Under the pieces are notes generated by a model. That model had not been told where the DNA came from, made no database searches, and saw only the letters and a list, made by a program, of their open reading frames with translations. The position numbers and the translations under genes were made by a program. From Callorhinchus milii (Eukaryota), in NCBI RefSeq assembly GCF_018977255.1, contig NW_024704743.1, forward strand, positions 6,202,001 to 6,266,000: a stretch of 64,000 nt of DNA, written 5' to 3'. Positions 11,009 to 39,069 of this stretch are shown in pieces (the stretch's first letter is position 1; every line of letters starts with the position of its first letter).

Positions 11009-12618
11009 CTAAAACGCATCAATACTCAACTGCTTCTCTGTAGTACTTCCCATTCCAATGGGTATCTCCTTTCCTTTGTTAACCTTTCGCTTGCCACATA
11101 TTCCAAAAAATGTCAGAAACACCGGCATAAATACGATGCCATGAATTGCACCAAACAATATGACAAGAAACATGATTTTGAAAAATGTCCGAAATATGTA
11201 AATGTTTGCAGCAGCCAACACAACAACACCCAGAATAGTGGAGAGCGCCCCCTGGATAATGGGATAGCCAAGAGTGTACAATGCTTCGATGGTACGTTCA
11301 TTGGCACTTGCTTTCTCATTGGAAACAAATGCATAGGAAATATGGGCTGTGAAGTCAACTGAAAACCCAATACAAATAACCAGATTAATCATAGATATGG
11401 AGTCTAGATTAACATCCCACAGAGCCATGAAACCAGCCACACCAGCTAAAATAGAGGCGACAGCTAATGTCACCCACACAGAACAAATTGGATTCGGAAT
11501 TAACAACAAGGCAACAACCAGCATTGCACCTGCTGCCACAACCACATTCTGTATTGTGTTGATCTGTATAACAAGATATTGATCAAAGTAAATGAACGCT
11601 GAATGATACACTTGTAAAGGGATTGTACAGCTCTCGGCCAGATCTCTCAGTTCAGTCATCATGTTTTTTTCGGCAATTGAGTCATTGACATTTTTGGTCT
11701 GAATAAAAAACCGTGATGCTGTTATGCTTTTATTATCTTGTGAGAGTTCAATATCTTGTTGAAACAAAGGGACAATCTTAAACAATTTAGGTAAATTTGT
11801 TATGAAGGAATCAGACGCCGTTATATCAATAGACATCAGTTTAGAAATGTCAATGTATGTTCGAAGCCAAGACTCTGATAGCTCTCGATCGACATAAATG
11901 TTATTTTCAAATTTGCCCATACAGCGTTCAATTTCAGTCTGAACACTGGTGTTCCAATAGTCCACTGATTCTGAGACTGATACCATGACCCGAGGTCCAT
12001 ATTGTGAGAAAAACATATCTTCATGGTCATAGAATTTAATCACATATGAATTGTCAGTGGCCAGATTTCTAAGATCAAATCCTTCCTGTAACTGGAAACA
12101 GCCATAGATACCACCTGCCAAATACCCTGCATACAGCAGTACCACAAATACCTTGGTCCATATATTGGTGAGGAATGGGCCATAATATTTCTTAAAGAAG
12201 AGATAAATTGGATGCTCTGTTTCAGCACCGGACATCTCATCATACTCCCCACCAACACAGCACATTCCATAGAATTTCGATTCTCCTGGTTGATGGTGCA
12301 TTTGAATCTTCCTGAAAGTCAGCCAATGCCTGTTACTGTTTTCTCTTCTCCCATTCAGTGCCAGAACCGCCCCAAAAAATGTAATGTTGTAAATGAAGCA
12401 GAACAAAACGGTAGTACCTGTATACAAGCAAAATGACTGCACAGATCGAAAAGGTGTCATGACACCAATGTAAAAGGCTATCACATCAGTCAGAGTCGTT
12501 ATGGTAATGGAAGCGGCAGCTTCAGCATATGTGGCTGCCATGCGATCTTCGATTTTAGCATGAACCTTTGTCTTCTGCCAACTGGAGAGCATAATGAACA
12601 TGTCATCAACACCAATAC
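11009..12618 (-). CDS. PTCHD3: PTCHD3-like terminal exon 4
   Basis: tttacag|(G)[10 protein letters not shown]... continuing as the 530-aa ORF; TAG at 11009-11011. Confidence 0.93.
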
Positions 12619-36200: not shown

Positions 36201-39069
36201 GAGAGTCGAGAGGGGAGCTGAAGGCACGGTCAAAGAGAAACAATGGAGGAGGAATCAATGATTTGTTCTATGAAAGTATCTGGGTAGAAATTCCTCACCT
36301 TCAAGAGGGCAAAAATCTTGCTTCTGGCCCAAGATCACTCGTGTTTGGTGATAACTATGGAGTGGCTGAAAGCCTCAAGAAGTTCCTCCACAGTCAGTCC
36401 ACATATATTCCTTACCAGGAATATGACAATTTCACTGGTACAGAAGTTGTGGATCTTCTGAGAAAGTACAAGGCCCACAACCTGAATAGCTATGAGGAGG
36501 TGTTCTTCCTGTGGGGGACTGTCAACCTGACTGACCAGACCAGCACAGCAGTGGTGCAGGAGGTCAGTAGCTGCTGTGAGATTTATCGTCAGATCATTCA
36601 GCTAGTTCGAGGGAAAAATGGCACAAAATCTGTTAGAGTAATAACATACAGGACGTCTGAAAAAACAGTGGATCAAATTACTCCAGGGTTTGCCCTGTGG
36701 GGTATGACGAGATCATGCAATGCAGAAATTCCAGAGGTTTTATTTCAGATCATTGATGTCAGCTCTATCAGTGATGCAGATATGGCAGCATTAGCTAATG
36801 TAATAGTCTTGTCTGATGGGGTGACCCACCCTGAGGTAATGATCAGCCAGGGAATGTTGCATGCTTCCACGATCACACGAACATCCCTTATAATCTCAGA
36901 CAATACCAATGGTGGGACTTCTTATTCTGGTTTGGGAAATGTCCTTTTCCAGATCATGGATCCTTACAATGTTGTGGATTTGCATGCCAAACCTCAAGAG
37001 AACAAAATGAGTGCACCCACAAAACAAAGTGTACACATTGAATTGGATGCAATTTGCATGCATTCAGCGGATTACTTCCCAGTTAGTGTCTCTGATCTAA
37101 ACTATGGGAAGACGTTGTACTGGAGCAAAAGTGTGTTTGGTGGGCACAATCTCGTGGCTCTGGACTTTAGTGGTACAGTCACTGCTGTTGGCAGTGATGT
37201 GAAGAGTTGCAAAGTGGGAGATCATATTGTTGCATGTTACCCGGTTCCTGCAGCTTCAAATGTCAGCCTTCCTGCTGTTGTTTGTTTCAAAAGCAAGAAA
37301 GTACCATTGCTGAAGGAGATCCCTTGTGTGTCATACTTCACAATAGCATGGGAAATATTCCATAATCTCTTACCAAAACCCAAACATCAGAAACGCTTGG
37401 TAATTGTTTCCATGATACCTGATTCGTGTTTGAGTAAAGTCTTGTCTCTGACAGCCAGGGAGTCTGGCTGGAGAGTTCAGGTTTATCCACACTCCAATGA
37501 CCTTGTACAGATTCCAGTTCACTGTGATGCTTTGGTTTTATTGCCACCTTTTGAAAAAACCTCTATTTCAAAATATGTCAATGGTTCTTCTGCTCGGATA
37601 TTGTTGTTCTCCTGGACAACAAGCAGATGCTTGATATTTCCCAAGACATTCTCCAAAATGAAAAGGACAATGTCTGTATTCATGTTCTGCAGTTAGCCAG
37701 TATATTTCAAAAGGGCTATCTCATGAAATCTGCAAATCGTATCTATAAATGGATGAGAACAATGTATTTAGGGACGAAACGTTTTGATCTATCAAAAATG
37801 ATCTTCCAGCAAAGAATATCAGACATGGTTGAGTGCAGGAATGAGTCGTACTTTACATGCAGAGATGTCTCCATTGCAGTTCTGAAGAGCACCACCAAGA
37901 CTAGGATGTCAGAGATTCCAATGCACTGCAGACAAAAGCAGCTCTTTAAAAGTGATGCTGTGTATATAGTTGCTGGAGGACTTACCGGTCTTGGCTTTGA
38001 AACTGTGAAATTCATTGCCAACCATGGCGGTGGCTATATTCTTGTTCTTTCAAGGAGCTCTCCATCGAAGGAGAAGCAGGAGGAATTTAGCAAACTACAG
38101 AATGAAATTGGGACAAGGATCATTTGCGTGGCCTGTGACATCTCAGCTCTGTCAAATGTCGAGAAAGCAATCAGTAATTTTCTTCACTCCTTCCCAAAGG
38201 TTTCTGTTAAAGGAGTGTTTCACAGTGCTGTGGTCTTACATGATTCACTCCTTCGAGATCTAAATAAATCATTGTTTGATAAGGTTCTTGTTCCCAAAAT
38301 TGCTGGGGTCTTGAATCTTCACTATGCAACACAAGGCCTCCAGCTGGAGTACTTTGTGTGCTTTTCCTCAGTTGCTTCATTCATTGGAACATCTCTACAG
38401 GCTAACTATTCTGCAGCAAACTCATTTCTTGATTACTTTGTCCACTTTAGGCGATGCCATGGGCTTGTGGGGCAATCTGTGAACTGGGGAGCACTGAATC
38501 TCGGGCTGCTGCTCAATAAAGACAACGTTCGGAAATTTCTGGAGTTGAAAGGGATTTTGGCAATAGAAATTTCTGAAATCATTAAAAGCTTTGAACGTTG
38601 TTTGACCCTGAACAATCCACAACAAGTAATCTGTAAATTTGATTTCTCAAATATATATGTTAATCTCTCCCAAAACCCATCAAGCGGGAGACGTTTCCAT
38701 TCAATTATGCAGGAAGAGATCAGCAAAGGAAATGTCAAAGTGGTGGTCAGTGACTCATCAATACCTCCTGAACAGTATATAATAACCTTGTTGTCTGAAG
38801 TGAGTAACACAGATCCTACAGACTTTACCAAAGAATCTACTCTCTCCAGTTTTGGCATTGATTCCATGATAGGAATGACCATACAGAATCGGATTCACCA
38901 GGAAAAGAATGTCAGTGTGCCACTAGTAACATTTCTTGATCCAAAATCAACAGTGTCCACTCTGGTATCACTGTTTGAAGAGGAAGGTTTCCAAGTTCAT
39001 TCTGGGGAAACATCTATGCCATTGAACAAGTCTTTTGAGGAAGTTCCTGATGAGTTTACTCAGTTGTAA
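33274..39069 (+). pseudogene. pks1: PKS copy 1 giant terminal exon 6 (KS end, AT, DH, psiER, KR, ACP), split into three ORFs by lesions
   Basis: aatag|ALKDNDHIWGVLVHSAINQDG... ORFs 33310-36093, 36083-37696 and 37627-39069 join into one frame after removing 36012-36240 and restoring one base near 37596. Confidence 0.88.
36012..36240 (-). mobile_element. L2 3' end inserted in PKS exon 6
   Basis: Removing it restores GTG AAC AAT GGA (VNNG). AACAA is present at both junctions. Confidence 0.92.

Follow-up and report, generated by a model that had tools for sequence, protein, structure and literature searches.

Locus and gene content

A stretch of 64,000 nucleotides from the elephant shark (Callorhinchus milii), hereafter the window (contig coordinates 6202001-6266000, in a genome of 992 Mb), contains a PTCHD3-like gene and a polyketide synthase (PKS) gene arranged head to head. 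The PTCHD3-like ATG at 16880 on the minus strand and the PKS ATG at 20705 on the plus strand are divergent and 3,825 bp apart, as the original prediction had read them (facing away, 3.8 kb), and enclose a spacer of 3,824 bp (16881-20704). Its assignment of the two genes to the Patched/RND and PKS families is likewise upheld by Pfam, which identifies Patched SSD/MMPL in the first and a single KS-AT-DH-KR-ACP module, without TE, in the second. The pair constitutes copy B of a larger array of six units, A to F.

PTCHD3 copy B is encoded on the minus strand in four exons, and its spliced reading frame is open over 866 amino acids. Exon 1 (16158-16880) supplies transmembrane helix 1 (TM1) and the first luminal domain and ends in a GT donor, exons 2 (15132-15253) and 3 (14875-15020) are bounded by AG/GT sites, and exon 4 (11009-12618), which carries GIGVDD of TM4, the second luminal domain, GFSVDF of TM10 and the stop codon, is 100% identical to the Callorhinchus milii record P0001. 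The protein has 12 membrane helices, two luminal domains and a sterol-sensing domain (SSD), and its structural model (predicted local distance difference test score 93; 12 long helices) best matches the fold of an NPC1-related protein (Z 47.3, root-mean-square deviation 3.7, 788 residues aligned), with further matches to PTCH1 (Z 45.9), Dispatched (39.8), MmpL3 (39.6, at 13% identity) and HpnN (34.5). As modeled, this RND fold alone indicates no substrate. PTCHD3 shares the 12-helix fold, the SSD and the acidic TM4/TM10 residues with PTCH1, NPC1 and Dispatched and differs in lacking the NPC1 N-terminal domain. Work on DISP1 and PTCH1 has given the acidic residues a role in ion coupling; among 86 homologs, D335 and D336 of TM4 are each present in 82 and D752 of TM10 in 79. 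In a tree of non-mammalian proteins named from the hit table, the protein falls inside a jawed-vertebrate clade with 100% support, as befits an ortholog of vertebrate PTCHD3, and elasmobranch sequences (P0002-P0039) form three PTCHD3 paralog clades; the triplication is old because each clade holds sharks and a ray. The only PTCHD3-like gene found in prokaryote genomes lies on a 1 kb contig of a Chromatiales metagenome-assembled genome (L140:18-632; 52% identical), which is probably animal host DNA, and none was found in viral contigs.

PKS copy B is read from the plus strand in six exons. Exon 1 (20705-20762) bears the ATG, exons 2 (21977-22130), 3 (23593-23753) and 5 (28820-29001) encode parts of KS, exon 4 (28291-28494) holds the KS active site DTACSSS, and the 5.8 kb exon 6 (33274-39069) encodes the end of KS, AT, DH, a structural KR part, an ER-like remnant without its NADPH loop, KR, ACP and the stop codon. 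Exon 6 is broken twice. A 229-bp retroelement-tail insertion (36010-36238), which resembles other repeats of the window and has no counterpart in copies A, C and D, introduces an in-frame TGA (36091-36093) at codon 1193. The frame is further shifted by a 1-bp deletion at 37595-37596, common to copies B, C and D. The reading frame is therefore not intact and copy B is probably a pseudogene, a point that the original prediction had overlooked. The existence of a 2,111-residue database model was considered as a sign that copy B is intact and was rejected, since the model skips the insertion and runs out of frame for 11 residues around the deletion. The intron preceding exon 6 also holds an 87-bp duplicate of the exon 6 start (32811-32897; 90% identical), as it does in copies C, D and E.

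A large part of the locus is present a second time in the window, with positions 45932-64000 matching 15635-34727 in the same orientation at 96-99% identity from a repeat inside PTCHD3 intron 1 onward. The original prediction that the arrangement is re-copied holds for the second divergent ATG pair (47452/51980), which lies inside this segment, and fails for the genes themselves. PTCHD3 copy C (46456-47452, minus strand) is a pseudogene consisting of exon 1 alone, split at ~46985-47268 by a retroelement like that in PKS copy B, and exons 2-4 were left out of the recopy. PKS copy C (51980-64000, plus strand) comprises exons 1-5 and the start of exon 6, continues to contig position 6270112 and is frameshifted by two 1-bp deletions just past the window end. 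Two intact modules within the window are thus ruled out by the PKS lesions together with the exon-1-only PTCHD3 copy.

The copy B spacer has three blocks in common with the spacer of unit E (2.0 kb, the shortest of the array), at 16881-17128, 18169-18768 and 19954-20698 and totaling ~1.6 kb; the remainder is largely repeat-derived. A classical bidirectional promoter joins starts less than ~1 kb apart within a CpG island. The array spacers tested have ATG spacings of 2.0-10.3 kb and CpG observed/expected ratios of 0.36-0.43, values that rule out a CpG-island bidirectional promoter of the kind implied by the shared upstream region of the original prediction. Insertions of one and the same retroelement tail, ending in (AAC)n, are found in the PKS exon (36010-36238), the PTCHD3 exon (46985-47268) and the spacer (19670-19955), and this family is young because its copies are 94-98% alike. 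Decayed reverse-transcriptase fragments of long interspersed nuclear elements from at least two families fill flanks and introns (window 1-10400, 24800-27300 and 48400-50000).

A six-unit array and the intact PKS record

Across 464 kb around the window, six PKS/PTCHD3 units are present and all six are head to head, a consistency beyond chance, with ATG spacings for units A to F of 10.3, 3.8, 4.5, 2.3, 2.0 and 2.0 kb, respectively. The array (contig 6146346-6401673) is inverted, as units A, B and C run in one direction and D, E and F in the opposite one, and no further PKS copies were found on any other contig of the genome. It lies between ACBD5-like and RAB18-like genes, names assigned from a motif and from the lizard study cited below; an ACBP-domain gene is found 104 kb from the array on one side and the first exon of the RAB18-like gene 36 kb away on the other. 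Copies differ by a few per cent, with dN/dS of 0.38-0.70 for PKS and 0.27-0.64 for PTCHD3. Every one of the six PKS copies is broken: copies A to D carry, between them, seven 1-bp deletions distributed over four sites together with the copy B insertion, and E and F contain stops and have lost large segments. The sharing of the 1-bp deletions tracks local copy similarity, and the location of all four deletion sites within PKS has P ~0.16 against an even spread; these deletions may in part be assembly errors. Similarity among the PKS copies is mosaic, as from gene conversion or chimeric assembly. Older PTCHD3 exon fragments, 76-89% identical, lie at contig positions 6192622-6196987, 6279355-6279466, 6324617-6324723, 6357720-6357826, 6390855-6390961 and 6401560-6401673, and show signs of being traces of earlier rounds of duplication. 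The array is a local amplification of an old animal PKS and PTCHD3 pair that is now decaying on its PKS side.

A live PKS probably exists in the species. Record P0418, also from the elephant shark, is an intact PKS of 2,107 amino acids whose exon 6 matches none of the four near-complete copies exactly, differing from A, B, C and D by 31, 44, 47 and 44 residues, respectively. In run X2, one contig over 36524-37546 has three bases missing and 27 other letters, and this three-base gap agrees with P0418, which is one residue shorter there, but not with any of copies A, C and D. Run X7 yielded one contig over 37556-38159 with one extra base at an unspecified position, and in runs X1 and X3, where most of exon 6 is uncovered, there is no evidence either way. 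As ~200 kb of this region also dropped out of two assemblies from long reads in a study of wall lizards (PMC10990284), a working PKS may be missing from the assembly or may be an allele.

The encoded synthase retains the catalytic motifs expected of such an enzyme, namely the KS Cys/His/His, AT Ser, DH His/Asp, KR Tyr and ACP Ser, as scored with motif patterns. In fold, its unannotated middle resembles the modifying region of reducing PKSs. It includes an ER-like part, whose fold matches are at 15-20% identity and whose GGxG-type NADPH loop occurs in none of 56 aligned rows. Without a working enoyl reductase, the chain would be left as a polyene, so that the sequence fits a polyene product, and parrot and chicken orthologs expressed in yeast do yield a polyene (review PMC7036892). 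In a tree constructed without the medaka, zebrafish and budgerigar proteins, the position of the PKS within the vertebrate clade follows the order of the species. The iterative PKSs of those three vertebrates (medaka OlPKS, zebrafish pks1 and budgerigar MuPKS) resemble it in their KS-AT-DH-KR-ACP architecture, length of ~2,100 amino acids and intact motifs, and differ in that here all six assembled copies are broken. The wall lizard Pks/Ptchd3 array between Rab18 and Acbd5 (PMC10990284) is the closest counterpart in its flanks, multiple copies of both genes, lability and difficulty of assembly. In contrast to the elephant shark array, which is a separate and recent expansion, it retains five full-length Pks genes, and Ptchd3 is treated there as a possible developmental receptor.

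Linkage, expression and loss across animals

PKS and PTCHD3 lie on the same contig in 25 of 27 vertebrate species, the two misses being sturgeons; these species are those with a contig given in both top-120 hit tables, a biased sample of mostly whole chromosomes that reports co-location and not orientation. The identifiers of the two genes are consecutive in Carcharodon (XP_041039871/872), Acipenser sinensis (FKN15_062615/6, on a 166 kb contig) and Ascaphus (FKM82_007116/7), four numbers apart on one 721 kb contig in Cetorhinus and ten apart in Pleurodeles. For invertebrates the linkage is reported in the literature. PTCHD3 adjoins "almost all" homologs of a clam PKS, an observation used there only to argue for animal origin (PMC9894158), PKS1 and PTCHD3 of a sea star share one 56 kb window (PMC12330192), and among vertebrates Pks and Ptchd3 have been co-amplified in wall lizards (PMC10990284). 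A Palythoa preprint (10.64898/2026.04.08.717340) describes a patched domain in most cnidarian PKS proteins, and all three Acropora PKSs listed in Table 2 of PMC4604110 carry an unnamed N-terminal domain, which we infer to be this Patched domain. It is possible that the cnidarian fusions are gene-model merges of neighbors, in which case the two genes would still be adjacent there, head to tail. The same table lists one painted-turtle PKS as "other-KS-AT-DH-KR-ACP", which may reflect a merge with a neighboring gene. Taken with the vertebrate counts and consecutive identifiers, the published invertebrate linkage shows that the association is not restricted to this lineage, a restriction that would have refuted the original prediction.

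Further searches bounded this distribution. PTCHD3 accessions were obtained from amphioxus, hemichordates, echinoderms and abalone, and no PKS accessions matching them were found, a search of 11 of the 18 supplement files of PMC10764717 included. Atlas searches returned no cluster containing both families, and 79 metagenome PKS loci at 27-45% identity included none (0/79) with a PTCHD3-like neighbor. An RDH12-like reductase gene adjoins pks in zebrafish (PMC6531356), and the clam paper (PMC9894158) counts one among its flanking genes. Such an enzyme could act in tailoring or release; none was found near the elephant shark array among 18 scored SDR matches.

Expression of the two genes overlaps at the level of tissue in the fish ear, according to published in situ work. 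In zebrafish, ptchd3a expression spans the otic progenitor domain and is on at the six-somite stage, pks is expressed in the otic vesicle (PMC6531356; PMC4604110), and the medaka PKS is reported to be apical, with a lipophilic product that is secreted. Co-duplication and co-loss are loose. PKS is listed as absent from human, cattle, dog, dolphin and mouse and as present in opossum (PMC4604110), human PTCHD3 nulls exist, and the mouse Ptchd3 knockout is reported to be normal with hedgehog genes unchanged. Thus, of the conserved linkage, co-duplication and co-loss that the original prediction set out for survey, linkage stands, in vertebrates from our data and in invertebrates from papers, while strict co-gain and co-loss does not, as PTCHD3 persists, or has multiplied, where PKS is lacking. 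The converse, PKS in the absence of PTCHD3, was established in no case. Dependence, if there is any, seems one-way, with PKS keeping PTCHD3 and PTCHD3 not dependent on PKS.

A proposed export partnership and its alternatives

We lean towards the view that PTCHD3 carries an amphiphilic PKS polyene out of the epithelium that makes it and delivers it to a lumen or matrix. An intact iterative PKS (KS-AT-DH-ER remnant-KR-ACP, no TE) would build an amphiphilic polyene acid from malonyl-CoA, a polyene being the product shown for the bird orthologs. PTCHD3, with its 12-helix RND fold, SSD and acidic TM4/TM10 triad, would reside in the membrane of the same cells, consistent with co-expression at tissue level in the fish ear, and would lift the product from the membrane into the lumen or matrix, where it may seed calcium carbonate in the ear. 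The two genes would be held in co-expression by their close linkage and, among cnidarians, by fusion. In favor of the proposal are the head-to-head order of all six local units, the linkage in vertebrates and that published for invertebrates, the Patched domains reported in cnidarian PKSs, the otic expression of both genes in fish, the RND fold with its conserved acidic residues, and the dispensability of PTCHD3 in placentals listed without PKS. In this proposal we infer the substrate, the direction of transport and any shared promoter. A more sweeping version is offered tentatively, in which PTCHD3 would be a dedicated polyene exporter in a two-gene cluster that predates the cnidarian-bilaterian split, became fused in corals and head-to-head in jawed vertebrates, was put to new use both in seeding calcium carbonate (in otoliths, spicules and perhaps the coral skeleton) and in making pigment, and, once PKS was lost, left PTCHD3 a dispensable orphan in placentals.

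Bacteria provide the nearest functional parallel in their clusters of PKS and MmpL exporter genes, exemplified by Pps/MmpL7, in which a type I PKS likewise neighbors a lipid transporter of RND fold. PTCHD3, in contrast, belongs to the eukaryotic Patched/NPC1 branch and is not itself an MmpL ortholog, and there is no operon; the PKS-PTCHD3 pair would work like such a cluster without belonging to that family. Animal biosynthetic gene clusters or bundles (PMC12833800) are comparable in grouping genes around a biosynthetic enzyme, whereas the partner here is a putative exporter and not a tailoring enzyme, and the main text of that paper is without patched, ptchd or transporter.

Several observations weigh against an export role. 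The five intact PTCHD3 copies (A, B, D, E and F), with open frames and normal splice sites, adjoin broken PKS copies. Elasmobranchs hold three old PTCHD3 clades against one full-length PKS listed per species, and PTCHD3 is reported to be kept as a sperm protein in placentals that lack PKS. PTCHD3-like proteins occur in a butterfly, a mite and scorpions, one record being named "daf-6". The copy B spacer is AT-rich (GC 0.43, CpG observed/expected 0.36) and without a CpG island. The vertebrate linkage is not specific by itself because it lies inside the generally conserved ACBD5-RAB18 block. Synthesis in fungi or yeast, where PTCHD3 is absent, still gives an active PKS product, and otoliths are rescued by extract added to the bath; as the Aspergillus-made product acts from the medium, the molecule can cross membranes to some degree. 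Finally, direct searches returned no PTCHD3-PKS fusion: residues 250-700 of P0001 had no match among 2,962 proteins of 1,517-4,330 amino acids, which is weak evidence, the best 150 representatives included one protein above 1,500 amino acids, a Trichinella Patched-Par3 merge, and the six long PTCHD3 matches scanned were without a PKS domain.

The two genes may instead share regulation without sharing chemistry, drawing on common enhancers in lumen-lining or matrix-secreting epithelia while PTCHD3 performs a sterol or apical-matrix task of its own, like nematode DAF-6/PTR. The arthropod proteins just mentioned are in keeping with this idea, as are the role of nematode ptr-6 in barrier function and lipid homeostasis, the onset of ptchd3a at the six-somite stage, before otolith seeding, and the shift of the neighboring rdh12l with pks1 status, which its authors read as local control (PMC6531356). 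A PKS-Patched protein fusion is not readily explained in this way, however, and the pair persists where other neighbors seem to differ, as indicated by a legend in PMC9894158, so that we consider shared regulation alone unlikely. Less likely still is passive synteny, by which unrelated neighbors would be held in a slowly rearranging block and co-duplicated only since 30 kb tandem duplications take both. ACBP at 104 kb and RAB18 at 36 kb, as in lizards, duplication breakpoints that cut through PTCHD3, PKS copies that die while PTCHD3 copies stay open, and the low divergence of the copies, with their dN/dS values, all agree with it; the bivalve and echinoderm linkage and the cnidarian fusion exceed the vertebrate block, and the overlap in otic expression is a further point that passive synteny does not account for.

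A different partnership can also be envisaged, in which PTCHD3 anchors the PKS at the membrane, unloads the chain from ACP, guards the cell against a reactive polyene or acts as a sensor of the product. The absence of TE from the domain list and the apical position of the medaka PKS despite its lack of a membrane anchor would suit such a role, as would the MmpL5-AcpM complexes among the fold matches and, given the topology, a Patched domain fused N-terminally, by which the synthase would be kept on the cytosolic side. Yeast and Aspergillus nevertheless release the product without PTCHD3, and a TE is present in those coral PKSs that have the extra domain (PMC4604110), which leaves these roles, collectively, at the improbable end of the explanations considered here.

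As to what is new, the linkage is already published, while a function for it is unproposed and directly testable: in the literature available as full text, apart from subscription papers and preprint supplements, no paper was found that proposes an exporter role for PTCHD3 or a functional link with PKS. Apart from an array in which most copies are dead, the window contributes little of its own. If PTCHD3 does export the PKS product, an orphan protein would gain a substrate, the exit of the otolith-seeding polyketide from the cell would be explained, as would the normal phenotypes of human and mouse PTCHD3 nulls, and transport by the Patched family would extend past sterols; the pair would also represent, in animals, a cluster of synthase and exporter in the bacterial style.

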